A stretch of 64,000 nt of DNA from positions 94,694-158,693 of the forward strand of contig JAIFVX010000002.1 of assembly GCA_019659125.1 (NCBI GenBank), read 5' to 3'. Below, in pieces: positions 31,909 to 61,973 of this stretch; within the stretch, counting starts at the first letter, position 1, and each line of letters starts with the position of its first letter. Source of the stretch: Candidatus Pacearchaeota archaeon (lineage in GTDB: Archaea; Nanobdellota; Nanobdellia; Pacearchaeales; GW2011-AR1). The translations under genes and the position numbers were made by a program. The notes beneath the pieces were generated by a model. It searched no databases and was not told where the DNA came from. It saw only the letters and a list, made by a program, of their open reading frames with translations.

Positions 31909-31980
31909 ACCGCTAGAGAGCTTAATTCTTTTTAAATATTCCCTAGAATGATTTTTATACTGACAGTCCCTGAAAGAGGG

Positions 31981-39611: not shown

Positions 39612-40964
39612 ATGGGAAAATACGACTTGATTGTTGTCGGGGGTGGTACTGCTGGTTTGAGGACTTCGCTTTATGCTGCAGGTCACGGACACAGCACTGC
39701 ATTGATAGATCCTGGAATTCTAGGAGGGACATGCCTCAACACAGGATGCATTCCCACCAAAAGCATGCTTCATGCATCTCATCTTTTTCACTCCATCCAG
39801 AATGCAAAGATGTTCGGTATTGATGCAAGCGCAAAGATCAATTTCAAGGCACTTATGAAACGCGTACATGACATTGTACAAGATGGACAGGACCATATTG
39901 AGACCAGCATTCACAATAAGAATTTAACCTTGATCAAAGGCAAGGCAACATTCATCTCAAAAGATTCTGTGCAGGTGAATGGACAGACACTCTCAGCAGA
40001 TAAGTTCATCATATGCACTGGAGCAAAGGCACGGGTCGCTCCTGTGAAGGGCTTGGAAAATGTAAAATATATGGTGAGTGATGATGTTCTTGATTTGCAA
40101 TCGCTGCCGAAGTCTATTGCAATCATTGGGGGTGGATATATTGCAGTTGAGTTTGCGACGTTTTTCAGCGAACTAGGAACTAAAGTATACATCCTTGAAC
40201 GGAATCCCCAGATTTTGAAGGATTTAGATGATGACATCATTCAACTTCTCAGTGAGCACTATGTTGAACAAGGCATCTCCCTACTTACACCAAGCGATAT
40301 TGTTGAAGTAGGACAGGAAGGAGATATGAAAAAAATAACATACACTATGGGAAACAAGACACAAACCGTGAAGGTAGAACAGCTGCTCATCGCTACGGGA
40401 AGGGCTCCGAATACATTCAATCTTGGTCTTGATAAAGCTGGTGTTAAAGTAGGAGAGAAAGGTAATATCGAAGTTGAAGATAATTTGCAAACAACGAACA
40501 AGAATATCTATGCCATCGGTGATGTCACGGGAAGGGCTCCCTTTGCTCACGCGGCAAAACGGGAATCTCATATTGCATTAGTCAATGCATTGGAAGGAAA
40601 AAAGGAAACTATGAACTTTGGCCTTGTGCCCTGGGCAATCTTTTCAGAACCAACTATCGGAGGCGTTGGGTTGAGTGAGAAACAAGCTAAAGAAAGAAAA
40701 GTAAATTATGGTACGCTCAAGGCAAACTTCTCAAGAGCGGGAAGGGCAACGGTCATTGGAAACACTCTAGGATTTGCAAAAGTACTCTATGATAAGAAAA
40801 ACAGGAAAATTATCGGAAGCACTCTTATAGGGCCAAGGGCCGATGAATTGATCCATGAATTTGTTGCGCTCATCAATGCAGAAGCAAAGATTGACATCCT
40901 TAACGACATCATTCACATCCATCCCACTTTATCAGAAGTGTTTGAAGCTCTCAAGGAAGCCTAA
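39612..40964 (+). CDS. lpdA: Dihydrolipoamide dehydrogenase-like flavoprotein disulfide reductase (probable PDH E3)
   Basis: GGGTAG, GGTCLNTGCIPTK, GGGYIAVE, IYAIGD, HIHPTLSE. Start moved to ATG 39612. Confidence 0.85.
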   Translation: MGKYDLIVVGGGTAGLRTSLYAAGHGHSTALIDPGILGGTCLNTGCIPTKSMLHASHLFHSIQNAKMFGIDASAKINFKALMKRVHDIVQDGQDHIETSIHNKNLTLIKGKATFISKDSVQVNGQTLSADKFIICTGAKARVAPVKGLENVKYMVSDDVLDLQSLPKSIAIIGGGYIAVEFATFFSELGTKVYILERNPQILKDLDDDIIQLLSEHYVEQGISLLTPSDIVEVGQEGDMKKITYTMGNKTQTVKVEQLLIATGRAPNTFNLGLDKAGVKVGEKGNIEVEDNLQTTNKNIYAIGDVTGRAPFAHAAKRESHIALVNALEGKKETMNFGLVPWAIFSEPTIGGVGLSEKQAKERKVNYGTLKANFSRAGRATVIGNTLGFAKVLYDKKNRKIIGSTLIGPRADELIHEFVALINAEAKIDILNDIIHIHPTLSEVFEALKEA

Positions 40965-42073
40965 AGTTTTACCCTTTTCATCTCTTCTAAGGAAGGAATG
41001 ATCTTCTTTGCGGTCGGGTTCTTTACAGCAGAGGAAATCTTCAATGCAGCATTGTAAAATAACTCTTCATCAAGGTTCTTTATCTTCTCTGCAAGTATCT
41101 TTTTCATAAGGAAAGGGAAGACAAGAACATTATTGACAGGATTATCGAAATCACTTCTTCCTGTTGCAGCTATTACAGCTCCAGCAGCCCTTGCATCATC
41201 AGGAAGTATCTCAGGGTCTGGATTTGAGAGGGCAAAGACAATTGGCTTCTTATCCATTGATTCAATCATTTTTTTGCTGACGAGATTTTTTTCACTTGAA
41301 ACTCCAATGAAGACCTCTGCATTTCTTAGTGCATTTGAAAGATCTCCTCTTATTCTTTTCTGATTGGTAAGAGCTGCAATCTTTTCCTTATAATGATTTA
41401 AATGTGGCCTTCCTTCATAGATAATGCCCTTGCTGTCAGTCACTATAATATGTTTGGCTCCCGCATAACGAAGTAGGTTTGTTATTCCATATCCTGCTGT
41501 TCCTGCACCAGCAATCACAATACTTACTTTCTCTATTCTCTTTCTCACGACTTTCAGAGCATTGAGGAGTGCGGCAAGAGCTGCGATGGCAGTTCCCTGC
41601 TGATCGTCATGAAATACTGGGATTTCCAGTCCTTTCAATCGCTCAAGAATTTCTAGACACTTCGGGGATTCTATATCCTCAAGGTTGATTGCACCAAATG
41701 TAGGAGCGATATTCTTTATGAATGAAATAATTTCTTCTTTATCCTGTGTCTTGATGCAGAGAGGGATTGCGTTCACGTTACCATAGGCCTTGAACAACAT
41801 TGCTTTCCCTTCCATGACGGGAAGTGCTGCCTCAGGACCTTTATTACCGAGACCAAGAATCCTTGAACCATCACACACAATCGCAATAGTGTTTCCTTTT
41901 CCCGTATATTCATATACAGTATCTTTGTTTTTGGCAATTTCCTGCACAATATGAGCAACACCCGGAGTATAGAGGAGTTTTAAGTTGGAATGATTTACAG
42001 GAATCTTTGGATTAACTTCTATCTTACCTTGCAGTCTCTTATGCAACTTTTTTGATTCATCCTCAATAGTCAT
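40961..42073 (-). CDS. NAD(P)-dependent malic enzyme (short prokaryotic type)
   Basis: YTPGVA, ILGLGN, PVMEGKA.LFK, INLEDI..P.C, FHDDQQGTA, FALSNPDPEI, ATGRSD. Confidence 0.92.
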   Translation of the reverse strand: MTIEDESKKLHKRLQGKIEVNPKIPVNHSNLKLLYTPGVAHIVQEIAKNKDTVYEYTGKGNTIAIVCDGSRILGLGNKGPEAALPVMEGKAMLFKAYGNVNAIPLCIKTQDKEEIISFIKNIAPTFGAINLEDIESPKCLEILERLKGLEIPVFHDDQQGTAIAALAALLNALKVVRKRIEKVSIVIAGAGTAGYGITNLLRYAGAKHIIVTDSKGIIYEGRPHLNHYKEKIAALTNQKRIRGDLSNALRNAEVFIGVSSEKNLVSKKMIESMDKKPIVFALSNPDPEILPDDARAAGAVIAATGRSDFDNPVNNVLVFPFLMKKILAEKIKNLDEELFYNAALKISSAVKNPTAKKIIPSLEEMKRVKL

Positions 42074-43437
42074 TTTAACGCCTTGTTCAGCGTCTCTTCA
42101 TCCATGAGATGCTGCTCTAAAATAATTTCTCGAATAGTTTTTCCTTTCATGTATGCCTGTTGGACAACACTTGAGGCCTTCTGATAACCAATGTGAGGAG
42201 TTAGCGCAGTCACTAGGAGGGGATTTTTTTCCACGTAATCCTTAATCTTTCCCTTATGTGCTTTCATTCCATTGATACAATGAAGGGAGAAAATATCAAG
42301 TGCTTTTGTCAAGACTTCTATAGAATGAATGAGAGCATGGGCAGCAAGAGGCATCATGACATTCAACTCGAGCTGTCCGGCTTGTGAACACAAAGTGATA
42401 GCTGTGTCGTTGCTTATTACATAGAATCCAACCATATCTACCATTTCGGCAATGGATGGATTCACTTTTCCAGGCATGATTGAAGAGCCAGGCTGCACTG
42501 CAGGCAATTCAACTTCATCAATTCCTGAAGTGGGACCTGAACTAAGCAGACGTAGATCATTGGCGATCTTTATTAGATCTTCCGCAAGAACTTTCAGGGA
42601 TGAACTGATCGAAGAAATGGTAGAAAGACTTTGCGTTTCTCCAAACAAATTTCCAGGATGAAATTTTGCTCTCGTCATCGCATACAATTCCTTGTACATT
42701 GACTTTCTAAATCGTTCAGGAGCATTCACTGAGGTCCCGACAGCGGTTCCTCCCAAGTTTATCTTCAACAAGTCAGAGTATATTTTTCCTAGTGATTTTC
42801 TATCATTGGCTATTGTGGCTGCATATCCTCCAAACTCCTGACCAAGAGTAAGGGGAACCGCATCACGTAGGTGAGTTCTCCCTGTTTTCTTTATTGATTT
42901 CCATTCTCGCGATTTTTTCTGAAGCGCTTCTTCAACATGGTGTAATGCAGGAAACAATTGCTTAGATATGGCTTGATAGGCTGCGACATGGATTGCAGAG
43001 TGAAAGACATCGTTTGTTGACTGGCCAAGATTGACATGGTCATGAGGATCGATGATTCCGTAAGAACCTCTTGTCTTATGAAGTATTTCCAAAGCTCGAT
43101 TAGCGATCACCTCATTGATGTTCATATGTTCTGAGGTGCCAGCACCTGCCTGGAACACATCCAGGGGAAATTGATCGTTCAGCTTCCCATAAATCACATC
43201 CTCGCATGCACGTACAATTGCGTTCGCTTTGTTCTCGTCAAGCCTCTTTATTCTTTTGTTTGCAATAGCAGCTGCTTTTTTTATCATCGCCAAGGCTTGG
43301 ACAAGCTTCATGGAAAAATGAAGTCCGCTAATAGGGAAATTTTCTAACGCTCTTTGAGTGGCAATACCATAATACACCTGAGAAGGAATCTTCTTTGATC
43401 CCAGATAGTCCTTTTCTACTCTATATCCTCTTTTCAT
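42070..43437 (-). CDS. Class II fumarate hydratase / aspartate ammonia-lyase
   Basis: GSSIMPGKVNP, GRTHLRDAVP, QSTND, GQLELNV. Some motifs look AspA-like (QAGAGTS), but coupling to the malic enzyme favours fumarase. Confidence 0.85.
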   Translation of the reverse strand: MKRGYRVEKDYLGSKKIPSQVYYGIATQRALENFPISGLHFSMKLVQALAMIKKAAAIANKRIKRLDENKANAIVRACEDVIYGKLNDQFPLDVFQAGAGTSEHMNINEVIANRALEILHKTRGSYGIIDPHDHVNLGQSTNDVFHSAIHVAAYQAISKQLFPALHHVEEALQKKSREWKSIKKTGRTHLRDAVPLTLGQEFGGYAATIANDRKSLGKIYSDLLKINLGGTAVGTSVNAPERFRKSMYKELYAMTRAKFHPGNLFGETQSLSTISSISSSLKVLAEDLIKIANDLRLLSSGPTSGIDEVELPAVQPGSSIMPGKVNPSIAEMVDMVGFYVISNDTAITLCSQAGQLELNVMMPLAAHALIHSIEVLTKALDIFSLHCINGMKAHKGKIKDYVEKNPLLVTALTPHIGYQKASSVVQQAYMKGKTIREIILEQHLMDEETLNKALK

Positions 43438-43511
43438 TTTCTAATAAGCCTTAGGGCATATAAATGTCTTTTCCTCATAAGATTTATAACAGATTTGTTC
43501 TTATTGGAGTA

Positions 43512-45230
43512 ATGAAAAAAGAGGAGAGTGATGTTCTCGTCATAGGTTCTGGGGGAGCGGGATTGAGGGCTGCCATTGCATTGCATGATCAAAGAATTCC
43601 TGTCCTTGTCGTAGGGAAGTGCGCAAAACGAGACGCTCATACCATTCTTGCTACAGGAGGCATTAATGCAGCGCTCGGAAACATGGATCCAAAAGATTCA
43701 TGGCAGCTCCATGCTTCAGATACTATTCGAGACGGCGGATACATCAATGATACGAATGCTGTCCTTACTTTGTGTAAGAATGCTCCAGCAGCTGTTCTTG
43801 AGCTTGAGAAATGGGGTGCTCAGTTCCATAAGGAAAAGAATGGACGGATAAGCCAGAGATTCTTTGGAGCTGCCACCTATAGGCGTGCATGTTTTGTTGG
43901 AGATGTTACGGGAAAGTCAATCTTGAATACATTAGTTGATCAGGCAGAAAAAAGAAAGATTCCTTTCAGAAGTGAAGTGTATATTGTTTCTCTTTTAGAG
44001 AAGAATGGAAAAGTTAATGGTGCTGTTGGGCTTGACATGCAAAGGGGGGAATTTGTTGTATTTCATGCAAAGAAAGTTATTCTTGCGACGGGAGGTCACT
44101 CTCGGATGTTTGCTCGATCGTCTTCCCGATTTTGGGAGAACAATGGGGATGGAATCTCACTCGCATACCGTTTGGGAGCTAAATTTATGGATATGGAGAT
44201 GTTTCAGTTCCATCCTACGGGAATGGTCTTTCCTTCTGAAGCAGAAGGAGTACTTGTAACCGAAGCGGTGAGAGGCGAGGGGGGAGTTTTGACTAACACT
44301 AGAGGAGAGCGATTCATGGAACGCTACGATAAGGAAAGAATGGAGTTATCTGCCCGAGATATTGTAGCACGGGCAATCTATAATGAGGTGCAAGAAGGAA
44401 GAGGGACAAACCACGGAGGAGTCTGGCTTGACATCTCTCACAAGCCCAAGTCATATATCTTAAAGAGACTTCCTAAAATGTATAAGCAATTCAAAGAGTA
44501 TGTGGGAATAGACATCTCAAAGGAAAAGATGGAAGTTGCTCCTACTGCCCACTATTCTATGGGTGGCATCTATAGTGATCAGAGAACCGGAAAAACTTCC
44601 ATTCCAAATTTATTTGCGATTGGGGAAGTAACTTCGGGAGTACATGGAGCCAACAGGCTTGGAGGAAACAGTCTTGCTGAGATTGTTGTGTTTGGAAAGA
44701 TTATAGGGGAGTATGTTGCACAGGAAGCAAAAAAAGACTATCTCCTTCCTCTTGATGAGAAAATGATCGCTAGCACAATAGAAGAAGTAGTGTCCATTAC
44801 TCATCAAAAAGGTGATGATCCTATTGCCTTGAAAAAAAACATCCAGAAAATCATGTGGAAGGATTGCGGAGTTGTCAGAGAAGGAAAGAAGATGAAGCAA
44901 GCATTGCGTGAGATATCTTCATTAAAAGATTCTACATTTTCCACAGGAAGGAATTTAAAGATGAATGAGAAACTGATTGCAGCACTTGATGTACGGAACA
45001 TGTTCCCAACATGTGACATGATCTTGCGCAGCGCATTATTCAGAGAAGAAAGTAGGGGCGCACATTACCGTTCGGATTTTCCTGAGACAAAAAAATCGTG
45101 GAAAAAGAATATTATATGTTTTCCTAAGCAGAATAGTATTAAGGTTACATCGCGAGCGATCGTACCTGTTCCGCGAGAGATTTCAAAACATTTTGGAGAC
45201 ACGAATCCATCCCACAAGCTCCTTGAATAG
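43512..45230 (+). CDS. Succinate dehydrogenase/fumarate reductase flavoprotein subunit (no Fe-S or anchor genes nearby)
   Basis: GSGGAG, AHTILATGG, QFHPT, TEAVRGEGG, RDIVAR, HYSMGG, HGANRLGGNSL, ESRGAHYR. TATA spacing supports ATG 43512. Confidence 0.88.
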   Translation: MKKEESDVLVIGSGGAGLRAAIALHDQRIPVLVVGKCAKRDAHTILATGGINAALGNMDPKDSWQLHASDTIRDGGYINDTNAVLTLCKNAPAAVLELEKWGAQFHKEKNGRISQRFFGAATYRRACFVGDVTGKSILNTLVDQAEKRKIPFRSEVYIVSLLEKNGKVNGAVGLDMQRGEFVVFHAKKVILATGGHSRMFARSSSRFWENNGDGISLAYRLGAKFMDMEMFQFHPTGMVFPSEAEGVLVTEAVRGEGGVLTNTRGERFMERYDKERMELSARDIVARAIYNEVQEGRGTNHGGVWLDISHKPKSYILKRLPKMYKQFKEYVGIDISKEKMEVAPTAHYSMGGIYSDQRTGKTSIPNLFAIGEVTSGVHGANRLGGNSLAEIVVFGKIIGEYVAQEAKKDYLLPLDEKMIASTIEEVVSITHQKGDDPIALKKNIQKIMWKDCGVVREGKKMKQALREISSLKDSTFSTGRNLKMNEKLIAALDVRNMFPTCDMILRSALFREESRGAHYRSDFPETKKSWKKNIICFPKQNSIKVTSRAIVPVPREISKHFGDTNPSHKLLE

Positions 45231-46592
45231 CTAGTTTATCACTATAGACTTGATATTAACAAATTCTTTGATGCCGTAATACGAAAGCTCACGACCGACT
45301 CCTGAGTTCTTTATGCCTCCAAAGGGAAGCCTTGGATCTGATTTTACCATGCCATTAATGAACACCATGCCTGCCTCTATCTTTTTTGCAAGCTCCTCGG
45401 CTTTTTTTAAATCTCCTGTCCAAAGACTTGCTCCAAGGCCAAACTGAGTTCTATTCGCCTCTTCGATTGCTTCTTTCTCATCTTTTACATAACTAATTAT
45501 AGCAACTGGGCCGAATGACTCCTCGTTCGCTATTTTCATAGATGGCTTTATGTTGGTAAGAGCTGTTGGCAGGTAATAGTATCCTCTTTCTTCTTTCCTT
45601 TTCCCTCCACAGAGGACCTTTGCCCCTTTTTTTACAGCATCTTTTACTTGCGCATCGAGAGATTCCAGAATGTCTTTTCGCGCGAGAGGCCCTACATCGG
45701 TTATCTGATAGAGAGGGTTTCCTACATTCAACGCCTGCATATGATGAACATAATTTGACTCAAAAGAATCTTTCTTTGACTTTACGACGATAAAGCGCTT
45801 TGCTGCAATACAGCTCTGACCTGCGTTTATCATTCGTGATTGCACGGCAGTCTTGCATGCAAGCACAAAATCAGCATCCTCCAGGATAATGAATGGATCG
45901 CTGCCTCCAAGCTCAAGGACAACTTTCTTTATGTGTTTACCAGCATTCGCTCCTATATTCCTTCCTGCTCCAACACTTCCTGTCAGAGAGACTCCTTGTA
46001 CCAAATTCTTTTCGATAAGATGGGCAGCTATATCGGATGACATCAGTGGAGCATTAAACAGATATTTAGGAAATGACTGCGCGAATAAACTCTCAAGAGC
46101 TTGAGCGCATCCAGGAACATTCGTTGAGTGCTTAAGGATACAGGCATTCCCTGCACACAGTGCTGGAATGGCGTAGCGAAAAACCTGCCAGAATGGGAAG
46201 TTCCATGGCATGATTCCCAAAATTATTCCTAACGGTTCGAATGCAACATAGCTTTTCTTGGCTTCTGTCTTGATTATTTCTGGTTGCAGGAATGCTGGAG
46301 CATTTTGCGCGAAATAATCGCAAAGCCAGGCGCATTTCTCAATCTCTGCTTGAGATTCCTTGATAGGCTTCCCCATTTCATTAGTCATGAGTGTTGCAAG
46401 TTCCGTACTCTTTCTTCTCAGCATGGATGCGAGGGATGCAACGCTGCGCGTTCGCTCCTGTACTGATTTATCTTTCCATGAAAGGAGTGCCTTTCTTGCT
46501 TTCTCCACGATTGCAATTATTTCTTTTTCTGGGGAAAGCGAATAACTCTTGAGTATTTCTTCGGTTGCAGGATTAATAGACGTTATTTTCAT
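45231..46592 (-). CDS. NAD(P)-dependent succinate-semialdehyde dehydrogenase (Sad/GabD1 type)
   Basis: IMPWNFPFWQVFR, LKH, LELGGSDP, NAGQSCIAAKR, EESFGP, SDPRLPFGGIK. Confidence 0.9.
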   Translation of the reverse strand: MKITSINPATEEILKSYSLSPEKEIIAIVEKARKALLSWKDKSVQERTRSVASLASMLRRKSTELATLMTNEMGKPIKESQAEIEKCAWLCDYFAQNAPAFLQPEIIKTEAKKSYVAFEPLGIILGIMPWNFPFWQVFRYAIPALCAGNACILKHSTNVPGCAQALESLFAQSFPKYLFNAPLMSSDIAAHLIEKNLVQGVSLTGSVGAGRNIGANAGKHIKKVVLELGGSDPFIILEDADFVLACKTAVQSRMINAGQSCIAAKRFIVVKSKKDSFESNYVHHMQALNVGNPLYQITDVGPLARKDILESLDAQVKDAVKKGAKVLCGGKRKEERGYYYLPTALTNIKPSMKIANEESFGPVAIISYVKDEKEAIEEANRTQFGLGASLWTGDLKKAEELAKKIEAGMVFINGMVKSDPRLPFGGIKNSGVGRELSYYGIKEFVNIKSIVIN

Positions 46593-47596: not shown

Positions 47597-47701
47597 CTTT
47601 TTATAGAGAACCATTCCTATGTATATAAAACATTCGTCTCGCAACTTATATAAATCCCTGTGTATTAATAGAGATACGATTCTCGTTGAAAGGGGGTTAT
47701 C

Positions 47702-47968
47702 ATGGCTAAACAAACAAATACCCGTACACGTACACGACCTCGGACTACTACCCGTAGCATGGCTATGTCAAAAGTTCGAGAGATGTCGCCACAGCTAGAG
47801 CAGAAGGCTCGGAAAGCGATGCATATGACTAAGAGAAAATTCCAGACGGCTGAAAAAAGGGTTGAAGGATATGTCAAACGTCACCCTGCCAAAGCCGCGC
47901 TTATTGCCGCCGCGATCGGAGCCGCAATCACTGCCGGAGCAGCTGGAGCATTGAAAAAGAAACGTTAA
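47702..47968 (+). CDS. Small basic tail-anchored protein, ElaB/YqjD (DUF883)-like
   Basis: EGYVKRHPAKAALIAAAIG C-terminal pattern; Arg/Thr-rich N-terminus; GGGGGT just upstream of the ATG. Confidence 0.62.
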   Translation: MAKQTNTRTRTRPRTTTRSMAMSKVREMSPQLEQKARKAMHMTKRKFQTAEKRVEGYVKRHPAKAALIAAAIGAAITAGAAGALKKKR

Positions 47969-49125: not shown

Positions 49126-49195
49126 GGCTTCTTAAGAAAACCTTAATATTTAAGGTTTAGGTAGATTTTTATAATAGTATTTCCTGGGAAGTAAA

Positions 49196-54068: not shown

Positions 54069-54106
54069 CTTTCATTTAGTAAACCGAATTATATAAATTC
54101 TTCGAG

Positions 54107-55477
54107 TTACAATACCCTTTTCTTTTGTTCATACCATGCAAGCTTGTCTAAGGCCTTGACGGCGTTTTCAGGATAGCTGAAAGTTGGAAGGCCTGAGTCT
54201 GCCAAGGAATAGGAAAGGTTTTGAGTAAATTCCCCTCCTGTTGAGACGACTACGATAGGCTTCTTTGTTTCTCGATGCATCTCTCCTATAACCTCTACAA
54301 TATCGGTGGTAATAAGAGGGGTTTGATAGAGGACGATGAGAAGTATCGCATCAATGCCATCGTCCTTGCTGCAGGCTTCTAAGGCAATCTTATAGCGTTC
54401 CGTTGTTGCATCTCCTACCAAATCTAACGGGTTGTGGACACTCACTGTGGGAGGAAATGCTTTCTTTAAATTTGATGCTGTCTCTGACGAAAGAGATGCA
54501 AGGACGAGATTATGTGCTGAACTGATCGCATCAGTTGAGAGTATACCATATCCGCCTCCATTGGTAATGATCTGCACTCGATTTCCTTTGCATGCAACTC
54601 CTTTTTCAAGCAAACTTGCAACGTCAAACATCTCTTCCAGAGATTCTGCATAGATAACACCTGTCTGCTTGAATATTCCTAGATATACTTCCTTCTTTCC
54701 TGCAAGCGCTCCTGTATGGGACAAGACCGCCTTGCCTCCCTGTTCGGTAAGGCCTCCCTTGATAGCAACGATGGGCTTGATCTTTGAGACTTTCTTGAGC
54801 GTATTAAAAAACTTCTCTCCGTCCTTGATTCCTTCAATATAGAGACAGATAACATTGGTGTGCTTATCCTCTGCTAGATATTCAAGAAGGTCTGATTCAT
54901 CAATATCCGTCGCGTTGCCGTAACTGATAAACTTTGAGAACGTATGATGCTCTTCCGTTGCTTTGTCGAGAATTGCGGCACCGATTGCACCAGACTGACA
55001 GACAAAGCTTATCCCTCCAGGCTTAGGCCTTCTCAGCCTATAGCGGGGAATGAAGAGCGCATCAAGATTATGATATGCATCGTAAATTCCCAGGCAGTTT
55101 ACTCCTATAGCGCTCATTTTGTTTTCATTCAGATAATTTCTTAATTCATCCTCAAGCTTTTTATTGCCTATCTCGCCGAAGCCTGCGCTGACAATGAGAA
55201 GGTTTTTGACATTAACATGGTTACATTCTTTCACCACTTTAAGTACAACATTTGCGGGAACTGCAATGATTGCAAGATCTATCTTCTTTGAGACTTTCGT
55301 GATTGATGAATATACCTTATAATTCAGGATCTGGGAGGTCTCAGGGTTGATAGGAATGACATCTCCTGCAAAGCCTCCTTCAATAAGATTCTTGAATATC
55401 ACATGTCCCACCTTATTAGGATTCCTTGATACACCTACGACTGCAATAGAATGAGGCTCGAAGAAATTCTTCATCAT
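54107..55477 (-). CDS. acdA: Acetate--CoA ligase (ADP-forming), alpha subunit
   Basis: FFEPHSIAVVGVS, SAGFGE, NCLG, QSGA, SHTGALAG, TNGGGYG, NPLDL. Confidence 0.92.
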   Translation of the reverse strand: MMKNFFEPHSIAVVGVSRNPNKVGHVIFKNLIEGGFAGDVIPINPETSQILNYKVYSSITKVSKKIDLAIIAVPANVVLKVVKECNHVNVKNLLIVSAGFGEIGNKKLEDELRNYLNENKMSAIGVNCLGIYDAYHNLDALFIPRYRLRRPKPGGISFVCQSGAIGAAILDKATEEHHTFSKFISYGNATDIDESDLLEYLAEDKHTNVICLYIEGIKDGEKFFNTLKKVSKIKPIVAIKGGLTEQGGKAVLSHTGALAGKKEVYLGIFKQTGVIYAESLEEMFDVASLLEKGVACKGNRVQIITNGGGYGILSTDAISSAHNLVLASLSSETASNLKKAFPPTVSVHNPLDLVGDATTERYKIALEACSKDDGIDAILLIVLYQTPLITTDIVEVIGEMHRETKKPIVVVSTGGEFTQNLSYSLADSGLPTFSYPENAVKALDKLAWYEQKKRVL

Positions 55478-55517
55478 CTTTTTTATCTAAGAGTGGGTTA
55501 ATTTATATTCGTTGTGG

Positions 55518-56201
55518 TCAGAAAAAGAGTACGACAAGAACTGAAAGGATGACAACGTTTCCAAAGTCTGCAATTGAGGTTGTGATGGGAATCAGGAAGT
55601 TATTGGGATCCTCCTTCTTCCTGAAATAATAGAGGCCTGCGCTTAGAGTAAAGATGAATATGACAATCATCATGATAAGCACATCTATGACTCCAATGGC
55701 TAGGATTTTATATGCAATAAGAAATGTATGATCGTGGGACACAGCTACAGATATAAGGGATGTTATAAAGACCATAATGAGAGATATGATGAGGGTCTGG
55801 GAAAAGAGATTGCTTAATTCTCGGTTGAGGAATGGATGACCGTGAATCCTTCCCTCATGAAGCAATGTGGAGTAGCGTGAAGAGACAATAGCTGCGCTTG
55901 CTCCTAACATGGCATTTAATGCTGGAAGCATGATAAGAAGAGGAAGCACTGAAATCAATGTTGTCTTGACTGATTCTACGGCCAAACCTCCAAGGGCATT
56001 GAGAAGGCCTGAAATGAGAAGTATTCCTAAACTTTCTTGCACTATGACTTTTATAACATTGGAATGAAAACCATATTCTTTTATGTAGAACAGCGTCTTT
56101 CTTGTTATATTGTGCTTCTTATGTAACTTATGCTGGAGCGGATGATACTTTCTCCGTTCAAGGTGTCTGAGCTGCTCGAGATTCTTTTGTATAAGTTTCA
56201 T
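55518..56201 (-). CDS. MgtE/SLC41-like divalent cation transporter, membrane half-domain
   Basis: About 5 TM segments, LPAL, SSRYST, DPNNFLIPITTSIAD; His-rich N-terminus. Confidence 0.75.
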   Translation of the reverse strand: MKLIQKNLEQLRHLERRKYHPLQHKLHKKHNITRKTLFYIKEYGFHSNVIKVIVQESLGILLISGLLNALGGLAVESVKTTLISVLPLLIMLPALNAMLGASAAIVSSRYSTLLHEGRIHGHPFLNRELSNLFSQTLIISLIMVFITSLISVAVSHDHTFLIAYKILAIGVIDVLIMMIVIFIFTLSAGLYYFRKKEDPNNFLIPITTSIADFGNVVILSVLVVLFF

Positions 56202-56740
56202 ATGAATGTAAGTGCTATGGCAAGGCCGATGATGCTGACGATATCGCCTACTGCAGTGACTAGAGGGCCCATAATATTATTGGGATCGTTTCCGCGCTTG
56301 AAAAGAAAATAGGTAGTGAATAAGGTGATTGGGATTTCAAGGACGTTCGCAACCAGCCCAGCGACTAATGCAAGCATCATCAAGCTAACATACCATACAT
56401 GGAAAAGAATATACGTAAAGAGCGTGGCGAGTACTCCTAAAAAGAATGATAGAAAGAGTGTAAGTATAATCGATGCTGCTATGTTTCCTCGAATGATTTT
56501 TGTATTGAGTTGTCCGGGTTTTATGACTCCAAGAAAAAGCCCCGAGGTAATTCGCGAGACAAATGAACCTCCTATGTCTCCGCGGAGATCAAGAAGCCCT
56601 GGAAGGATAATGAGCATTCCGGGAAGTAGTTCAAGCTTGTTCGTATAGAGCGCAAGGAGCGATCCTGCAATGATTCCCCCTATAACTGAGATAAGCTGAG
56701 AAGAGAATATTTCCTTAAAGTTCTTATCAATAAACCCCAT
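56198..56740 (-). CDS. MgtE/SLC41-like divalent cation transporter, membrane half-domain
   Basis: LPGLLDLRGDIGG..SR, DPNNIMGPLVTAVGD. Confidence 0.78.
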   Translation of the reverse strand: MGFIDKNFKEIFSSQLISVIGGIIAGSLLALYTNKLELLPGMLIILPGLLDLRGDIGGSFVSRITSGLFLGVIKPGQLNTKIIRGNIAASIILTLFLSFFLGVLATLFTYILFHVWYVSLMMLALVAGLVANVLEIPITLFTTYFLFKRGNDPNNIMGPLVTAVGDIVSIIGLAIALTFI

Positions 56741-57951
56741 TATGTAATCTCCAACATAAGATGGCCTGGATCCTCTATAAACATCTTAAGAGATTCCAAG
56801 AAGCGAGCTGCCTGCGCTCCATCGATAATCCGGTGATCAAAGGTAAGCGAGAGAGGAAGCACCTTAGTTTTTCCACGGTCAAATATTCTTCCTGTTCCAA
56901 GGATGGCTGCCTCTCCAGGATTAATGATTGGTGTCGCATAGGTTCCTCCTATAGACCCATAGTTTGTTATCGTAAATGTGCCTCCCTGCATCTCTTCAAG
57001 TTTTATTGTCCTTGCCCTCGCTTTCTCTGCAAGTGCAGATATTTCCTGTGCAAGTTCAACAATGCTTTTAGTATCGGCGTTTTTTAGAACTGGAACCATC
57101 AGGCCGAGCTCTGTCTCTACTGCAATTCCTATATTGAAATATTTCTTGATAATAATCTCTTCCCCTTCTATTGAGGAATTAAGTATTGGATTCTCATGCA
57201 ATGCAGCCACGATTGCCTTGATTATGAAAGGCATTAATGTCAGCTTAACGCCTTTCTTTTCTAGCGATCCTTTCTCTTTTTCTTTAATAGAATAAAGCTG
57301 AGAGACATCAACATCTTCCATTGCAGTCACTTGTGCTGTCTCTGCCAAAGACTTTACCATATTGATAGCAATAGTCTTTCGTATTCCCTTGAGCGGAATT
57401 CTCTCTGTATACCCATGATCATCATACTTTTTCTGTACAGGAACAAGTTGTTGAGGAATTGCTTCTGGCTTTTGCTTTTCTATATCAGTTTTTATGATTC
57501 TTTTTTCAGGTCCAGAACCTTTCATTCCATGAAGATCTACATTCATTTCGGAAGCTAGCTTCCGTACTGCTGGAGATGCAAGAATCTTCTTTGATTGCTG
57601 GATTCCTTTCATGGTTTGCGCCTGAGGCTTATCCTCGACCTCGTCGGGAGCCTCTTCAAGTTGTCCGACGACAGACTTTCCTTTTACTGGTTCTTTAACA
57701 GTTACTTTTTCTCCTTGTACGCCAAGAGTTACTAATGTTGATCCTACTTTTACCGTATCTCCTGCCTTATAGTGAAGTTTTATGACCACTCCTGATCGCG
57801 GGGATGGAAGATCGACAACTGCCTTGTCCGTTTCCACCTCAACAAGTGGTTGATCTTCTTTTACAGAATCTCCTTCATTTACAAGCCATTTTACAATCTC
57901 TCCTTCGGTAATTCCTTCTCCAACATCAGGAAGTTTGAACTCAAATGGCAT
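56740..57951 (-). CDS. pdhC: 2-oxoacid (pyruvate) dehydrogenase E2, dihydrolipoamide acyltransferase
   Basis: Lipoyl domain VETDKA, ASPAVR, DHRIIDG. Confidence 0.93.
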   Translation of the reverse strand: MPFEFKLPDVGEGITEGEIVKWLVNEGDSVKEDQPLVEVETDKAVVDLPSPRSGVVIKLHYKAGDTVKVGSTLVTLGVQGEKVTVKEPVKGKSVVGQLEEAPDEVEDKPQAQTMKGIQQSKKILASPAVRKLASEMNVDLHGMKGSGPEKRIIKTDIEKQKPEAIPQQLVPVQKKYDDHGYTERIPLKGIRKTIAINMVKSLAETAQVTAMEDVDVSQLYSIKEKEKGSLEKKGVKLTLMPFIIKAIVAALHENPILNSSIEGEEIIIKKYFNIGIAVETELGLMVPVLKNADTKSIVELAQEISALAEKARARTIKLEEMQGGTFTITNYGSIGGTYATPIINPGEAAILGTGRIFDRGKTKVLPLSLTFDHRIIDGAQAARFLESLKMFIEDPGHLMLEIT

Positions 57952-58918
57952 TCTTCATCACCTTCTCTATCGCATTAATGATTCGTGCCTGATTAACAAG
58001 ATACATGTCTTCATGTCGAGGCAAAGGGACAACAACATCGTAGCCTGTAACACGTTCTATAGGAGATTCTAAACTGTAAAGAGCTTTTTCATTAATTCGT
58101 GCGATAATTTCCGCTGCAAATCCATTATTCCTTTGGGCTTCCTGTACAATCACTACTTTTCCTGTTTTCTTCACTGAACTGATGATGGTTTCTGTATCAA
58201 GAGGCGACAAAGTGCGGAGGTCAATCACCTCAACATCGATATCAGACATATGCTGGACCGCTTCAAGAGATATTTTTAGAGAAGCACCATAGGTAATAAG
58301 AGTAACATCATTTCCAGGTTTGACAATCTTAGCCTTACCTAATGGAATCATATACTCTTCCTCAGGAACTTCCTCTTTTATCGCTCGGTAAACTCTCTTA
58401 GGCTCAAAGAAAATGACTGGATTAGGATCTCGCATTGCTGAGATAAGAAGACCTTTTGCATCATAGGGTGTTGAAGGCATGACTACTTTTATTCCAGGGG
58501 TATGGATGAAATAGGTTTCAGGTGATTCTGAATGATGTTCTAATGCTCGAATTCCCCCACCAATAGGACATCTGACTACTAAAGGAACTGTATATCGTCC
58601 TCGTGACCTGTGCCTAAGCCTAGAAGCATGACAAATTAATTGATCTATCGCTGGGAAGACAAATCCTTCAAACTGTATTTCTGCAACGGGCTTCATGCCT
58701 CCTGCAGCCATTCCTATGCAAGTACCTACAATTCCAGATTCAGCAAGAGGAGAATCAATGACTCTTTCATTTCCATACAATGCTGCAAGACCATCAGTCA
58801 CTCGAAATACCCCTCCATCTTCTCCCACGTCTTCTCCTATGAGAATAATACTTTTGTCCTTTTCCATCTCTTGCTTAAGTGCAAGATTGATCGCCTCCAC
58901 CATATTAAGCCGTGGCAT
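57941..58918 (-). CDS. pdhB: 2-oxoacid (pyruvate) dehydrogenase E1 beta
   Basis: GEDVG..GGVFR, DSPLAE, EIQF, EHHSES, DLRTL. Start moved to ATG 58918. Confidence 0.93.
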   Translation of the reverse strand: MPRLNMVEAINLALKQEMEKDKSIILIGEDVGEDGGVFRVTDGLAALYGNERVIDSPLAESGIVGTCIGMAAGGMKPVAEIQFEGFVFPAIDQLICHASRLRHRSRGRYTVPLVVRCPIGGGIRALEHHSESPETYFIHTPGIKVVMPSTPYDAKGLLISAMRDPNPVIFFEPKRVYRAIKEEVPEEEYMIPLGKAKIVKPGNDVTLITYGASLKISLEAVQHMSDIDVEVIDLRTLSPLDTETIISSVKKTGKVVIVQEAQRNNGFAAEIIARINEKALYSLESPIERVTGYDVVVPLPRHEDMYLVNQARIINAIEKVMKNAI

Positions 58919-59621
58919 AATTTTCCTCCTGTAACCCAAAAACATGCTTGAAATTTGACACCAACTTCTTTTTTACCTGTTCAAGAGGAAGCTTATAGCC
59001 TACAATATCGCTCATGAATATTGGCTGAACTTCACTGGCTGGCCAACCACATGGATCAATGAGATGGAAATAATGCTTATCTTCCCTGTTTACATTTAAA
59101 GAAAATCCATGATGGGTGTAAATATCATCTCCTAACAATGACACCTTTATCCCTTTCGTGCAGAGGACATAATTCTTTCCGGCATTTCTATACCAGGTTG
59201 CTCTATAGGGCTTGTCTGTCGAGGGATTCTGTACATCATAGCGACTAACGGGGATGTCAAAATCACGGGCAGTGAGAATCATCGTCTCTTCAAGCTTTTT
59301 CATGAAATTAAGAATTCCACCATATTCTTTGATGTTCATAATAGTATACCCTATAAGCTGACCTGGCCCTAAGTACGCTGCACCGCCTCCTCTATCACTC
59401 TGGAAAAATTCTATTCCTTTTTGCGCAAGCTCTTCTTGAGTAACGTGCAACTTATTACTCTCCTTATTAGATCCAAAGGTTATCGTCGGTGAGTGCTCCA
59501 CCAGTAGAAGCCTATCTCCTATCTTTCTTTGTTTTCTCTTCTCAAAGAGGTCATGCTGGATTTCAAGCGCTCTGGAATAATTCATAAATCCAATATCTTG
59601 AACAAGAAAATCCAAGCTCAT
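58905..59621 (-). CDS. lipB: Lipoyl(octanoyl)transferase LipB-like, atypical
   Basis: LLLVEH.P..T.G, DRGG...Y.GPGQL.GY, HGFSLN, IDPCG. Confidence 0.78.
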   Translation of the reverse strand: MSLDFLVQDIGFMNYSRALEIQHDLFEKRKQRKIGDRLLLVEHSPTITFGSNKESNKLHVTQEELAQKGIEFFQSDRGGGAAYLGPGQLIGYTIMNIKEYGGILNFMKKLEETMILTARDFDIPVSRYDVQNPSTDKPYRATWYRNAGKNYVLCTKGIKVSLLGDDIYTHHGFSLNVNREDKHYFHLIDPCGWPASEVQPIFMSDIVGYKLPLEQVKKKLVSNFKHVFGLQEENYATA

Positions 59622-60685
59622 GCCACCTCTCCCTTTACGCTTTCCCTTTCTTCTTTCAGGTCAGGAGTAAGCTTGTCATACATGTAGTCAAACATTTCTT
59701 CAGGTTTTATAGGCTGAATGGATTCGAACTTGGTTATGGCATCCTGCACTAACTGCTCAGCTTTTTGCGCAACTTCTTTTTCATATGAATCTGAGAACAT
59801 TTTCTTCTTTACCATATATTTCTTTAGTCTTTCTATAGGGTCCTTGGATTCCCACTTTTTAACCTCATTCTCACTTCGGTATTTCTTAGCATCATCCGAT
59901 GTGGTATGATCTCCCATTCTATACGTAAAACATTCAATAAATGTCGGTCCTTTGCCATTCCGAGCTTTCTTTAACGCATCTTGTACTGCACTATAAACTG
60001 CAAACACATCATTGCCATCAACTTGGATCCCTTCAAATCCATACGCAATCGCTTTCTGCGCCAGGGATTGCGCTGCAGTCTGTTCTTTTACAGGAACAGA
60101 TATGGCATATTGATTATTCTGGCAGATAAATACTGTAGGTGCCTTAAAAACTCCGGCAAAGTTCATAGCTTCATGAAAGTCTCCTTCTGAGGTCGCTCCA
60201 TCTCCAAAATATACAAGGGTAGCTCCTTCCTTCTTATAGAACTTAAACGACATAGCCATACCTACTGCATGAGGCAAGTGACCTCCCACCGTGATCGCAA
60301 CAGGAAACATATTTACGTTTTTTGGTATATCCATGCCCCTTTCATCCCCTGCCCAGTATTGAAATAACTTTTCTAAGGGCATTGCTCGTGTAATGAACAC
60401 TCCATGTTCTCTGAATGCTGGAAATGCCATATCGTGTTCCTGCATCTGGATCGCTGAAGGAATCTGACAGGCTTCCTGTCCCTTCACAGAAGCAAATGTC
60501 CCTATCCTTCCCTGCCTTTGCAATTTTACAGCCTTATCATCAAATGTTCTTGTAAGTATCATGAGTTCATACATTCTTTTTATAATTGCAGGAGAAAGGG
60601 ATGGAATCAACTTTTCATCTGCAATTCCCTGTTCATTTAAAATTTGCAGATAGGGAACCTCAAATTTTTCAATAATTTTCCTCAT
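59618..60685 (-). CDS. pdhA: 2-oxoacid (pyruvate) dehydrogenase E1 alpha
   Basis: LQRQGRIG, GQEA, FGDGATSEG...QNNQYAIS, YRMGDHTTSDD. Confidence 0.93.
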   Translation of the reverse strand: MRKIIEKFEVPYLQILNEQGIADEKLIPSLSPAIIKRMYELMILTRTFDDKAVKLQRQGRIGTFASVKGQEACQIPSAIQMQEHDMAFPAFREHGVFITRAMPLEKLFQYWAGDERGMDIPKNVNMFPVAITVGGHLPHAVGMAMSFKFYKKEGATLVYFGDGATSEGDFHEAMNFAGVFKAPTVFICQNNQYAISVPVKEQTAAQSLAQKAIAYGFEGIQVDGNDVFAVYSAVQDALKKARNGKGPTFIECFTYRMGDHTTSDDAKKYRSENEVKKWESKDPIERLKKYMVKKKMFSDSYEKEVAQKAEQLVQDAITKFESIQPIKPEEMFDYMYDKLTPDLKEERESVKGEVA

Positions 60686-60770
60686 TCTTTCACCTCGGTC
60701 TTTACAATCCCGGGCGATATTTAAACCTTGTCTGAGAAATCTTTAAATAGCCCCCTTTGATGATTTTTTT

Positions 60771-61295
60771 ATGATAACTAAAGAAAGTAGAGACCAACAG
60801 GCAGGTTCTAATCTAGAAGGCTCTCTGAAAGTCATCCGCGACCTTATCGCCAAGCGGGCGTATGAGATAAGCATCTCTGGCACGGGCGGAAGTGAGCTGG
60901 AGAATTGGCTGCGAGCAGAGCGTTCTCTGAACGATAATGTAGGAGTACTAAACTACTATGAACCATTCCAACATGAAATGAGGCGAAAGCTAGAGTTAAA
61001 AGGATACCAGTTAAAATTTTCTACAGAACTCCACTGCGACATTGAAACCAATGATGGTAGATGTATCGGCGACTTAGATTTTGAGTACGAGCATAGTGCT
61101 CATTCTAATGGAAAAGATTGGGATTTATGGCTGAATGGAGAAGAACATCGTGAATCACTACTTCCCGTTATAGAATCTCTAGCTAGGCAAAATAAGGCTA
61201 CTATGAGTGTAACTTACCTATATGAACTACCTCTAGGAGATGGTCGTACAGGTATCAGACATGCACACATGGAGATTACTGATACGGCTAAGTAA
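60771..61295 (+). CDS. Hypothetical protein with an N-terminal DUF2934-like motif
   Basis: IAKRAYEI...ELENWLRAERSL; own TATA (TTTAAATA at 60742). Confidence 0.55.
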   Translation: MITKESRDQQAGSNLEGSLKVIRDLIAKRAYEISISGTGGSELENWLRAERSLNDNVGVLNYYEPFQHEMRRKLELKGYQLKFSTELHCDIETNDGRCIGDLDFEYEHSAHSNGKDWDLWLNGEEHRESLLPVIESLARQNKATMSVTYLYELPLGDGRTGIRHAHMEITDTAK

Positions 61296-61346
61296 TAAGC
61301 GATCTATTTCAATAAGATATTTAAGCATCTTTTAGTTCTTGAAAGA

Positions 61347-61973
61347 ATGAAAGAGGTGTATAATGAGTATAAGGCTGAGCAGTTTTTACGGCGATATCTT
61401 CCTGTTGCGCGATCACAGCTTGTTCATGACAGCACGCAGGTTACTCTTCCCTTGCCTCTTGTCTTAAAGATCATCTCTGATGATGCATTACATAAAAGCG
61501 AGGTTCATGGAGTCAGAGTTGTAAAGACACAGGATGATTTGGAGAGGGAATTTTCAGATTTGATTGAGAATGCGAAGAAAAGAAAGCTAAAGATTGATGG
61601 TATCCTTGTCCAGGAATACTGTTGGGGAACAGAATTGATTATGGGGATAAAGAATGATGAAGTCTTTGGCCATGTCATTGTATTTGGTGTTGGAGGGATA
61701 TTTACCGAGATACTGAAAGATACATCAACACGAAAGTGCCCTATCACTGCTCATGATGCGGATGAGATGATGGAAGAATTGAAAGCGAAGGATATACTGC
61801 ACGGTGCACGAGGAGTAAAAGTAAATAGAGAGTTCTTGAAACATGCGCTTGTGGCTATCTCAAAGATTCCAGGACATCATCCCCACATAGAAGAGCTCGA
61901 CATCAATCCATTCATGGCAGATGAAGAAGGCGGGAAGGTTGTTGATGCTCGAATTGTATTCAATACTAAGTAA
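61347..61973 (+). CDS. acdB: Acetate--CoA ligase (ADP-forming), beta subunit (ATP-grasp)
   Basis: PLVLKIIS...HKSE..GV, LVQE, FG.GGIFTE, ELDINP, VDARI. Confidence 0.9.
   Translation: MKEVYNEYKAEQFLRRYLPVARSQLVHDSTQVTLPLPLVLKIISDDALHKSEVHGVRVVKTQDDLEREFSDLIENAKKRKLKIDGILVQEYCWGTELIMGIKNDEVFGHVIVFGVGGIFTEILKDTSTRKCPITAHDADEMMEELKAKDILHGARGVKVNREFLKHALVAISKIPGHHPHIEELDINPFMADEEGGKVVDARIVFNTK

Follow-up and report, generated by a model that had tools for sequence, protein, structure and literature searches.

Results

Gene content of the locus

The window analysed here, a stretch of 64,000 nucleotides from a Candidatus Pacearchaeota genome, contains between 39.5 and 62 kb a run of adjacent metabolic genes, among them two aldehyde dehydrogenase (ALDH) genes, three genes for saccharopine-dehydrogenase-like (Sac) proteins and a gene for a native amine dehydrogenase (nat-AmDH) resembling Ord. 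A first-pass annotation, made from the sequence alone, had interpreted this run as a single transaminase-free pathway from polyamines via γ-aminobutyrate (GABA), succinate and pyruvate to acetate and ATP. The source genome (G000; G numbers denote sampled relative genomes and L numbers fetched relative loci) consists of 808,890 bp on 5 contigs, is 85.6% complete and carries the window on contig 2; all genome-wide absences reported below are provisional at this completeness. The GC content is ~41%, the genome size can be put at roughly 0.8–0.95 Mb, in the manner of Pacearchaeota/Woesearchaeota-type DPANN archaea, and the nearest relatives of the window proteins are in records named Candidatus Pacearchaeota, Woesearchaeota or Nanoarchaeia.

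Genes were assigned from a map of open reading frames (ORFs) together with Pfam and NCBIfam scans, complemented for selected proteins by PDB sequence comparisons. In this way, every gene family named in the first-pass annotation was recovered in its place, and two MgtE-domain genes and a 174-aa ORF, which its list did not include, were added:

39612-40964, plus strand: dihydrolipoyl dehydrogenase E3 (TIGR01350, 412.9 bits, cut-off 408.8; Pyr_redox_2 and Pyr_redox_dim)
40961-42073, minus strand: short malic enzyme (Pfam malic and Malic_M)
42070-43437, minus strand: aspartate ammonia-lyase-like class II lyase (NF008909, 594 bits, cut-off 510)
43464-45230, plus strand: orphan SdhA/FrdA-type flavoprotein (FAD_binding_2 and Succ_DH_flav_C)
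45231-46592, minus strand: ALDH453 (453 aa), resembling succinate-semialdehyde dehydrogenase (SSADH) of the Sad/cyanobacterial type (PDB and NCBIfam matches)
46589-47614, minus strand: Ord-like nat-AmDH, 341 aa (P0001; PF19328 and DapB_N, PF01113)
47965-49125, minus strand: DAO-family FAD amine oxidoreductase (PF01266, 144 bits), divergent from Sac1
49196-50350, plus strand: Sac1, saccharopine/carboxyspermidine-dehydrogenase-like (PF03435 and PF16653)
50297-51508, minus strand: Sac2, paired with Sac3 (PF03435 and PF16653)
51508-52632, minus strand: Sac3 (PF03435 and PF16653)
52629-54068, minus strand: ALDH479 (479 aa), PatD-like aminoaldehyde dehydrogenase (NF010000, 586 bits, cut-off 615)
54107-55477, minus strand: ADP-forming acyl-CoA synthetase (ACD) alpha subunit (TIGR02717, 485 bits, cut-off 567)
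55518-56740, minus strand: two MgtE-domain membrane proteins, 227 and 180 aa (PF01769)
56740-60685, minus strand: pyruvate (2-oxoacid) dehydrogenase genes in the order E1alpha-LipB-E1beta-E2 (NCBIfam and Pfam)
60771-61295, plus strand: 174-aa ORF (no Pfam or NCBIfam match)
61347-61973, plus strand: ACD beta subunit, ATP-grasp (PF13549, 172.8 bits)

The ORF of E3 opens at a TTG at 39525, and its domain begins near the ATG at 39612. Similarly, the longest ORF for the Ord-like protein (46589-47713, minus strand) begins with a TTG 33 codons upstream of an ATG, and it is at this ATG that the homologues and the 341-aa copy in the database start. The Ord-like gene therefore probably starts at 47614, leaving ~350 bp of non-coding sequence before the DAO gene.

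According to the ORF map, the genes from E1alpha to Sac2 form a run of ten on a single strand with gaps of at most 40 bp. The coding share of the genome is ~90%, and by a crude ORF-based estimate 63.5% of same-strand neighbours in the genome are at most 40 bp apart. Since short gaps between same-strand genes are the genome norm, the ten-gene run alone is no proof of an operon, and we rejected tight packing as operon evidence.

The Ord-like dehydrogenase belongs to a distinct clade

The PDB matches of the Ord-like protein are of the AmDH4 type (E 1e-72 to 1e-75), and its score with NF040740 (332.7 bits) is below the Ord equivalog cut-off of 400. For comparison, 160 loci with Ord-like relatives were fetched from species genomes and metagenomes and divided into 25 clade loci, in which the relative is at least 52% identical, and 135 other Ord loci. 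Near-duplicates among the clade loci (L092=L006, L085=L084, L093=L005 and L083~L082) reduce the number of distinct loci to 21. In a FastTree phylogeny of 159 sequences, from which L008 and L110 were omitted as partial, the clade was monophyletic with 24 tips, a support of 0.93 and L096 as sister.

Active-site residues were mapped through pairwise alignment to AmDH4 (E102/N135/R161/N163/H264/Q267). While 112/135 of the other Ord sequences have E-N-R-N-H-Q at these positions, the signature of the clade is E-N-R-(I/V)-E-(R/N) in 22/23 sequences and E-N-R-K-E-R in 1/23. The catalytic Glu (P3) and the DapB_N/DAP_DH_C fold are retained in the Ord-like protein, as is the Arg aligned with AmDH4 R161 (P9). 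In place of the Asn that aligns with N163, clade members have Ile, Val or Lys; Glu takes the place of the H264-aligned His (P15) in 23/23 of them, and Arg or Asn occupies the polar position after it. In the nat-AmDH study PMC11164908, binding of the terminal carboxylate of Ord-type substrates is assigned to Arg P9 and His P15; of this pair, the clade retains the Arg and has lost the His. The same study describes the functions of nat-AmDHs outside ornithine fermentation as unknown, and mentions a large group with unknown substrates for which genomic context had given no clue (PMC11164908). At the cofactor position termed R1 there, the Ord-like protein carries an Asp, which by the rule given in the paper is a weak hint of NAD(H) use (PMC11164908). 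By their sequences, the Ord-like proteins may constitute a new, DPANN-specific clade, and the ASMC groups or NetSyn context clusters of PMC11164908 may already place it.

Families typical of the neighbourhood of ornithine fermentation genes (aminomutase, thiolase) were not found among the 60 window ORFs scanned. In some non-DPANN loci (L014, L097, L099, L100 and L151), an Ord gene lies near E1alpha, E1beta, E2 and LipB genes.

Aldehyde dehydrogenases and saccharopine-dehydrogenase-like proteins

ALDH453 is closest to SSADHs: all 7 PDB matches with at least 396 bits are SSADHs (best 420 bits, Synechococcus; Sad/YneI types), and the NCBIfam SSADH models score 507 (cut-off 730) and 455 bits, compared to 350 bits for BADH. 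ALDH479 scores 586 bits with the aminobutyraldehyde dehydrogenase model NF010000 (cut-off 615), compared to 450 bits for the next family, BADH, and its PDB matches of 392-406 bits include γ-aminobutyraldehyde dehydrogenase (6c43) and E. coli YdcW (1wnb). With models for pyrroline-5-carboxylate (P5C)/glutamate-semialdehyde dehydrogenase, both proteins score 239-302 bits. By tblastn, these are the sole two ALDH genes in the genome. From the sequence coordinates, the overlap is 4 bp between Ord and ALDH453, again 4 bp between ALDH479 and Sac3, and 1 bp between Sac3 and Sac2.

All three Sac genes encode the Sacchrp_dh_NADP plus Sacchrp_dh_C architecture, and Sac1 and Sac2 are 43% identical. The closest PDB relatives of Sac2 are chains of the carboxy(nor)spermidine-dehydrogenase type (E 1e-13 to 1e-16). 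Sac3 matches carboxyspermidine dehydrogenase 8deb (E 1.8e-23) and, more weakly, PH1688 (3abi, E 1.2e-9), which we take to be an L-lysine dehydrogenase. Among the matches listed for Sac3, the homologues have DPANN record names, and one is named Methanoperedens; a Protein Atlas search with Sac2 returned solely generic 'saccharopine dehydrogenase family' clusters. The three types differ in their company. Sac3 travels with ALDH479, and the unit ALDH479-Sac3(-Sac2) is found also in L001, L004, L005, L006, L090, L094, L166 and L177. Sac2 is mostly located beside Sac3, and the pair recurs in L001, L005, L006, L008, L090, L094, L166, L173 and L177. Sac1 is often alone or divergent from DAO: its orthologues (54-63% identity) are solitary or accompanied by DAO in 5 further family genomes, and the divergent DAO/Sac1 pair is present also in L001 and G141 (L171). 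An obligate Sac3/Sac2 heterodimer was considered and set aside, because Sac3 occurs alone in G010, and Sac2 alone in G150 and G110. The fold of the Orn/DAP/Arg decarboxylases (PF02784), which is that of carboxyspermidine decarboxylase, was not found in a six-frame search of G000.

The flavoprotein that had been called PuuB-like does belong to the general DAO family, but the PuuB label is over-specific: where the cut-off is 600, the best NCBIfam match reaches 104 bits. Neither a specific NCBIfam family nor, at E 1e-10, a relative in the PDB was found for it. A second, distant DAO-family gene with 24% identity is located outside the window (contig 2 of G000, 7125-8216).

Several further genes accompany Ord- or Sac-type genes in relatives. 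In four of them, the gene for a thioredoxin-reductase-like (TrxR-like) flavoprotein of 315-393 aa immediately adjoins a gene of one of these types (L009 8850-9890; L170 5484-6485; L176 5717-6664; L177 11265-12446); this flavoprotein is a candidate for NAD(P)H re-oxidation. In G094, an Fe/Mn superoxide dismutase gene lies between ALDH479 and Sac3 (L173 12044-12652), which hints at an oxic lifestyle. The MgtE-domain pair is found beside ALDH479-Sac3 also in L004 (3405-4699) and is absent from the blocks of pyruvate dehydrogenase (PDH) and ACD genes of G147 and G134; this pair may be part of the amine module and might form a channel for cations or amines.

Linkage of the amine genes in relatives

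A partner ALDH and/or Sac gene was present within 10 kb at 19/25 clade loci (16/21 of the distinct ones), compared to 0/135 of the other Ord loci. Counted separately, an ALDH453-type gene was found at 13, an ALDH479-type gene at 10 and a Sac gene at 9 of the 25 clade loci, and none of the three at the 135 others. Among relatives at 50-80% identity, gene order is kept and the overlaps are seen again, while the composition of the module differs between loci. The cluster is not syntenic across DPANN genomes, and the module is rare, an Ord-like gene having been detected in 3/101 genomes of the order.

In L006/L092, the ALDH453-type gene overlaps a gene for an acetolactate-synthase-like thiamine pyrophosphate (TPP) enzyme (L006 16984-19064; NF006187, 855 bits), for which tblastn found no homologue in the source genome. 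This pair presumably recalls the cyanobacterial pair of 2-oxoglutarate decarboxylase and SSADH and, by this analogy, may further support the SSADH assignment.

G010, from another family of the order, has no Ord-like match. It carries a same-strand array of genes for an ALDH479-type and an ALDH453-type protein, a PNPOx-like protein, a Sac3-type protein, a class III aminotransferase, a TrxR-like flavoprotein and glutamate dehydrogenase (GDH), with a class I/II aminotransferase gene upstream. This is the gene set needed by a transaminase-dependent version of a route from amines to dicarboxylates. The presence of transaminase and GDH in place of Ord supports the Ord-like enzyme as a functional, non-orthologous replacement for 'transaminase + GDH'.

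Transaminases and electron acceptors

In agreement with the first-pass annotation, a Pfam scan of 60 window ORFs returned no aminotransferase family, and the window is devoid of recognizable pyridoxal phosphate (PLP)-dependent aminotransferases. PF00202 and PF00155 gave no match in a six-frame search of the whole genome, the controls being detected in 14/14 genomes each, and tblastn with the class III transaminases of two relatives found no match in the genome either. The genome-wide absence covers these two families, classes IV and DegT not having been searched genome-wide, and tblastn detected a class V (Aminotran_5-like) gene on contig 1, outside the window contig. GDH was not found in the genome beyond a 26.6-bit match inside the malic enzyme gene. 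The suggestion that genomes with this cluster lack GabT and PatA holds for PF00202 in the source genome, but PF00202 likewise had no match in 54/61 sampled family genomes, which makes the absence a trait of the lineage and not of the locus.

Six-frame searches with controls detected no cytochrome bd, NiFe hydrogenase or FeFe hydrogenase in the genome, and a Pyr_redox_2 search recovered, besides E3, two reading frames of 332-344 aa, with no protein the size of an NADH oxidase among the matches. With the searches for hydrogenase, cytochrome bd and NADH oxidase all empty, the earlier caveat that no electron sink is visible stands.

The pyruvate dehydrogenase and acyl-CoA synthetase genes

The genes for a pyruvate dehydrogenase complex comprise E1alpha (TIGR03181, 470 bits, cut-off 411), E1beta (307 bits, slightly under the cut-off of 321), E2 with lipoyl, E3-binding and catalytic domains (Pfam), E3 and a lipoyl transferase (LipB, 58905-59621, minus strand; TIGR00214, 87.1 bits, cut-off 83.6). 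The Pfam domains of both ACD subunits are present, CoA-binding and ligase domains in alpha and ATP-grasp in beta, but the acyl specificity of ACD is unreadable from sequence, ACDalpha scoring 485 bits against an equivalog cut-off of 567. From 27 kb on, the block sits within sugar metabolism, with transketolase, phosphoribosyl pyrophosphate synthetase, PfkB, GAPDH and PGK genes upstream and Rpe, RpiB and TIM genes downstream.

E1alpha was found in 4/61 and ACDalpha in 13/61 family genomes. G147 and G134 share the order of the window, E1alpha-LipB-like-E1beta-E2-(one unrelated gene)-ACDalpha, with ACDbeta homologues (57% identity) near the block and no ALDH453, Ord or Sac gene nearby; a class III aminotransferase is encoded elsewhere in each of these two genomes. 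The LipB gene of the window is embedded between E1alpha and E1beta, and the genes in this position in G147 and G134 are weakly or not similar to it. Conversely, G094 has Ord-ALDH453 on one contig and ALDH479...Sac3-Sac2 on another, with no match to E1alpha or ACDalpha, and G074 has the order transketolase...RpiB-Rpe-ALDH479-Sac3-Sac2 without PDH-ACD genes in between. Compared to G074, the window carries an additional ACDbeta...E1alpha-E2-MgtE-ACDalpha segment between Rpe and ALDH479. Within 10 kb of the Ord-like gene, E1alpha or ACDalpha was present at 0/25 clade loci. PDH-ACD is a block separate from the amine module, and the proposed continuation of a single pathway from amines to acetate and ATP is not supported by G134, G147 and G094.

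Putative genes for C4 acid metabolism

The class II lyase scores 594 bits with the aspartase model NF008909, over its cut-off of 510, and 487 bits with the fumC model TIGR00979, under the cut-off of 665. Its top 8 PDB matches are aspartases or aspartase-like (428-374 bits), and fumarases reach at most 367 bits. From these scores the lyase appears aspartase-like, and a fumarase role is not clear. The best PDB match of the flavoprotein is mycobacterial SdhA (403 bits, compared to 268 for NadB); in the alignment, the covalent-FAD histidine of SdhA is matched by the His of an 'AHT' motif in the flavoprotein. We rejected an L-aspartate oxidase as the main reading on these grounds and on the failure to find NadA in a six-frame family search of the genome with controls. 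The partners expected of a succinate dehydrogenase, SdhB-type Fer2_3 (PF13085) and CCG/TfrB (PF02754), had 0 matches in the genome and are not adjacent to the flavoprotein gene in L001 either. Six-frame family searches with controls detected neither the lactate/malate dehydrogenase family nor class I fumarase in the genome. Without an Fe-S partner, fumarase or malate dehydrogenase, the steps from succinate via fumarate to malate that had been read from these genes are not recognizably encoded. On sequence grounds, formation of succinate from aspartate via fumarate as an electron sink and formation of pyruvate from malate or oxaloacetate seem at least as likely as a conversion of succinate to malate.

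SdhA or aspA was found near the module at 1/25 clade loci, namely L001 from a relative with 81% identity, where, as in the window, the aspartase-like gene is two genes from Ord-ALDH453. The same-genus contig L175 keeps the order GAPDH...E3-malic-aspA, and L001 keeps ALDH479...aspA. Inside the amine module of L006/L092 there is a homologue of the malic enzyme (49% identity), and in L087 one is found at ~8 kb from the gene for the Ord-like protein.

Other features of the window

The first part of the window (1-27300) is occupied by a large cell-surface glycosylation cluster with many GT2, GT4 and GT9 glycosyltransferases, FkbM-type methyltransferases, a carbamoyltransferase, a RmlD-like reductase, a flippase-like gene and a 902-aa STT3/AglB-like oligosaccharyltransferase. 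ORFs without a Pfam family are located at 60771-61295 (plus), 38760-39470 (minus), 63064-63417 (minus), 29216-30433 (plus) and 31345-32082 (minus), of which the second (236 aa) is kept beside E3 in L002 and L175.

Discussion

Our analyses favour the interpretation that the run is composed of at least three separately inherited metabolic modules, of which the amine module employs dehydrogenases instead of transaminases; we estimate the probability of this reading at about 0.55. In the first module (45231-54068), amines would be oxidized in NAD(P)-dependent steps. Sac3 and Sac2, perhaps together with Sac1 and the DAO flavoprotein, would convert a di- or polyamine to an aminoaldehyde, which ALDH479 would oxidize to an ω-amino acid; the Ord-like enzyme would then deaminate this ω-amino acid to a semialdehyde, and ALDH453 would yield the dicarboxylate. 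The favoured series is putrescine, 4-aminobutanal, GABA, succinate semialdehyde and succinate. We infer the assignment of enzymes to steps and the chain length of the substrates from sequence, and the exchange of His for Glu in the Ord-like enzyme makes the mapping of enzymes to steps tentative. The second module, E1alpha-LipB-E1beta-E2...ACDalpha with ACDbeta and E3 at the edges, would convert pyruvate via acetyl-CoA to acetate and ATP and may represent the ordinary end of sugar fermentation among the transketolase, PfkB, GAPDH, PGK, Rpe, RpiB and TIM genes. The third module, consisting of the aspartase-like lyase, the orphan flavoprotein and malic enzyme, may act on C4 acids. What survives of the first-pass annotation is thus the transaminase-free middle part from amine to dicarboxylate, which the ALDH identities, the coupling by overlaps, the linkage at 19/25 compared to 0/135 loci and the G010 array all support, and for which the substrates are our own deduction.

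Going one step further, the Ord-clade enzyme may be a physiological ω-amine dehydrogenase, acting for example on GABA, in a route that, together with Sac-type diamine dehydrogenases and the two ALDHs, would lead from diamines or polyamines to a dicarboxylate without transaminases, PLP or 2-oxoglutarate, and this route would non-orthologously replace the version with class III transaminase and GDH of a related genome. Taken jointly, these two propositions are tentative, and we consider them somewhat more likely to fail than to hold.

Several observations weigh against the proposed amine module. The change of the carboxylate-binding His to Glu could favour a diamine over a carboxylate substrate such as GABA. 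The Sac proteins are remote from carboxyspermidine dehydrogenase (51-87 bits in the PDB comparison), and the carboxynorspermidine synthase model NF043000, with its cut-off of 800, gives 50.9 and 68.6 bits for two of them and no match for Sac1. A six-frame search of the genome found no APC-type permease for amines or amino acids, and no electron sink was found for up to four NAD(P)H. The Ord-like gene is without module partners in L003, L007, L009 and L095, and also in L083 and L089, which are short contigs, and G074 has an Ord-like gene and no ALDH453-type match. Related loci are kin and not independent. The displacement argument rests on the single locus in G010, whose aminotransferase is HemL/GntE-like, with ~145-152 bits for the GABA-transaminase models against cut-offs of 507-724.

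Among the alternatives, the most serious is that basic amino acids and not polyamines are the substrates of the amine module, which we regard as unlikely but deserving of attention. Lysine or ornithine could undergo ω-deamination by enzymes of the lysine-6-dehydrogenase or saccharopine type, followed by ALDH479, or 2,4-diaminobutanoate could be converted via aspartate semialdehyde and aspartate to fumarate by the Ord-like enzyme, ALDH453 and aspartase. A succession of saccharopine dehydrogenase and aminoadipate-semialdehyde dehydrogenase is well established. The similarity of Sac3 to PH1688 is in line with this possibility, as are the names of Sac3 homologues, of which, among 120 listed, 2 are called 'lysine 6-dehydrogenase' and 3 'saccharopine dehydrogenase (NAD+, L-lysine-forming)'. 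Furthermore, the carboxylate-binding Arg of Ord is kept and the clade-specific Glu could provide a binding site for a second amino group, and the aspartase-like gene is close to Ord-ALDH453 in the window and L001. On the other hand, the two ALDHs are closest to PatD and SSADH, with 239-302 bits for the P5C/glutamate-semialdehyde models compared to best scores of 507 and 586, aspartase and SdhA neighbours were seen at 1/25 clade loci, and no onward route from 2-aminoadipate is visible.

That one co-evolved linear pathway leads across the 22 kb from polyamines via GABA, succinate, fumarate, malate, pyruvate and acetyl-CoA to acetate and ATP is improbable. It would account for the adjacency of all gene families, the ten closely spaced genes from E1alpha to Sac2, the gene orders shared with L175 and L001 and the malic enzyme gene inside the amine module of L006/L092. 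Against it stand the short gaps as a norm of the genome, PDH-ACD blocks free of amine genes in G147 and G134, amine genes in G094, which has no E1alpha or ACDalpha match, and beside Rpe in G074, the 0/25 clade flanks with E1alpha or ACDalpha and 1/25 with SdhA or aspA, and the aspartase-like lyase together with the failure to find SdhB, CCG, fumarase or malate dehydrogenase. Slightly less credible still is the opposite extreme, in which genome compaction has packed unrelated oxidoreductase genes that form no functional unit. The high coding share with mostly tiny gaps and the varying composition of the module from locus to locus would fit this view, but the partners at 19/25 clade loci and none of the 135 others, the recurrent overlaps, the gene order kept at 50-80% identity and the G010 operon, which joins both ALDH types with Sac3, transaminase and GDH, speak for a unit. 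We give the least credence to biosynthetic Sac proteins, which would form polyamines or secondary amines by reductive condensation and be linked to ALDH genes incidentally: their closest solved relatives are of the carboxy(nor)spermidine-dehydrogenase type and Sac1- and Sac2-type genes are solitary in several family genomes, but the genome has no PF02784 match, Sac3 is overlap-coupled to an ALDH that would destroy the aldehyde needed for condensation, and ALDH479-Sac3(-Sac2) recurs as a unit in eight loci.

The proposed amine module is of interest because it provides a consistent and interpretable gene context for a distinct nat-AmDH clade, the natural roles of nat-AmDHs beyond Ord being largely unknown. 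If the proposed function is true, it would be the first natural role for a nat-AmDH outside ornithine fermentation, and catabolism of diamines and GABA would be feasible without PLP-dependent transaminases or 2-oxoglutarate cycling. This would suit organisms shorn of almost all amino acid metabolism, and an ultra-small symbiont could strip nitrogen and reducing power from the polyamines of its host. For the biology of DPANN archaea, host amines are thereby indicated as a possible source of reducing equivalents and ammonia, and for biocatalysis, the clade would offer natural terminal-amine dehydrogenases. Annotation of the PDH, ACD and C4 genes at this locus as one polyamine-to-acetate pathway should be avoided.

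Comparison with known systems

We found no dehydrogenase-based microbial route for putrescine or GABA in the literature searched under such enzyme names, and the few papers that did contain one of them had plant titles. In the DPANN literature, the matches listed contained no aminobutyraldehyde or succinate-semialdehyde dehydrogenase and one mention of a saccharopine dehydrogenase.

The Sac proteins share their two-domain architecture with carboxy(nor)spermidine, saccharopine and L-lysine 6-dehydrogenases (LysDH), which include their closest solved relatives; LysDH presumably belongs to the same Sacchrp_dh_NADP/Sacchrp_dh_C fold. They differ from carboxy(nor)spermidine dehydrogenase in their remoteness (51-87 bits), in the lack of a detectable decarboxylase partner, in their coupling to ALDH, which implies an oxidative direction, and in the presence of three paralogue types. 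Enzymes of this family act via imines on C-N bonds of lysine or of di- and polyamines. The LysEDH reaction is described in PMC6697735.

With Ord/AmDH4 (PDB 6g1m/6g1h), the Ord-like protein has in common PF01113 and PF19328, the catalytic Glu and Arg P9, with E 1e-72 to AmDH4. In contrast to Ord, it scores below the NF040740 cut-off, has Glu for His at P15, falls into a separate clade and is accompanied by ALDH and Sac genes instead of ornithine-fermentation genes.

ALDH453 is closest to the SSADH of the cyanobacterial bypass consisting of 2-oxoglutarate decarboxylase and SSADH (4it9/3vz1 as top matches), but in the window it is coupled to an amine dehydrogenase and not to a TPP enzyme. Archaeal 2-oxoacid dehydrogenase complexes and ADP-forming acetyl-CoA synthetases are known from the Thermoplasma and Pyrococcus types. 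The window resembles these systems in having E1alpha and E1beta, E2, E3, a lipoyl transferase and split ACD alpha and beta subunits, and differs in the location of E3 and ACDbeta away from the core and in the rarity of the block, E1alpha having been found in 4/61 family genomes.

The closest functional parallel may be the Pat route of E. coli together with GABA degradation, which proceeds by PatA(YgjG), PatD(YdcW), GabT/PuuE and GabD/Sad(YneI). As in that route, the module has a PatD/YdcW-like and a Sad-like ALDH, each following the removal of an amine, and succinate is the expected product. Unlike E. coli, the genome has no detectable class III transaminase or GDH, and amine removal would fall to dehydrogenases of the NAD(P) type with two unrelated folds, Sacchrp_dh and DapB/PF19328, which would skip 2-oxoglutarate/glutamate cycling. 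In the interpretation that we favour from the sequences, the module would be in effect a Pat/GABA route in which both class III transaminases have been replaced by dehydrogenases.

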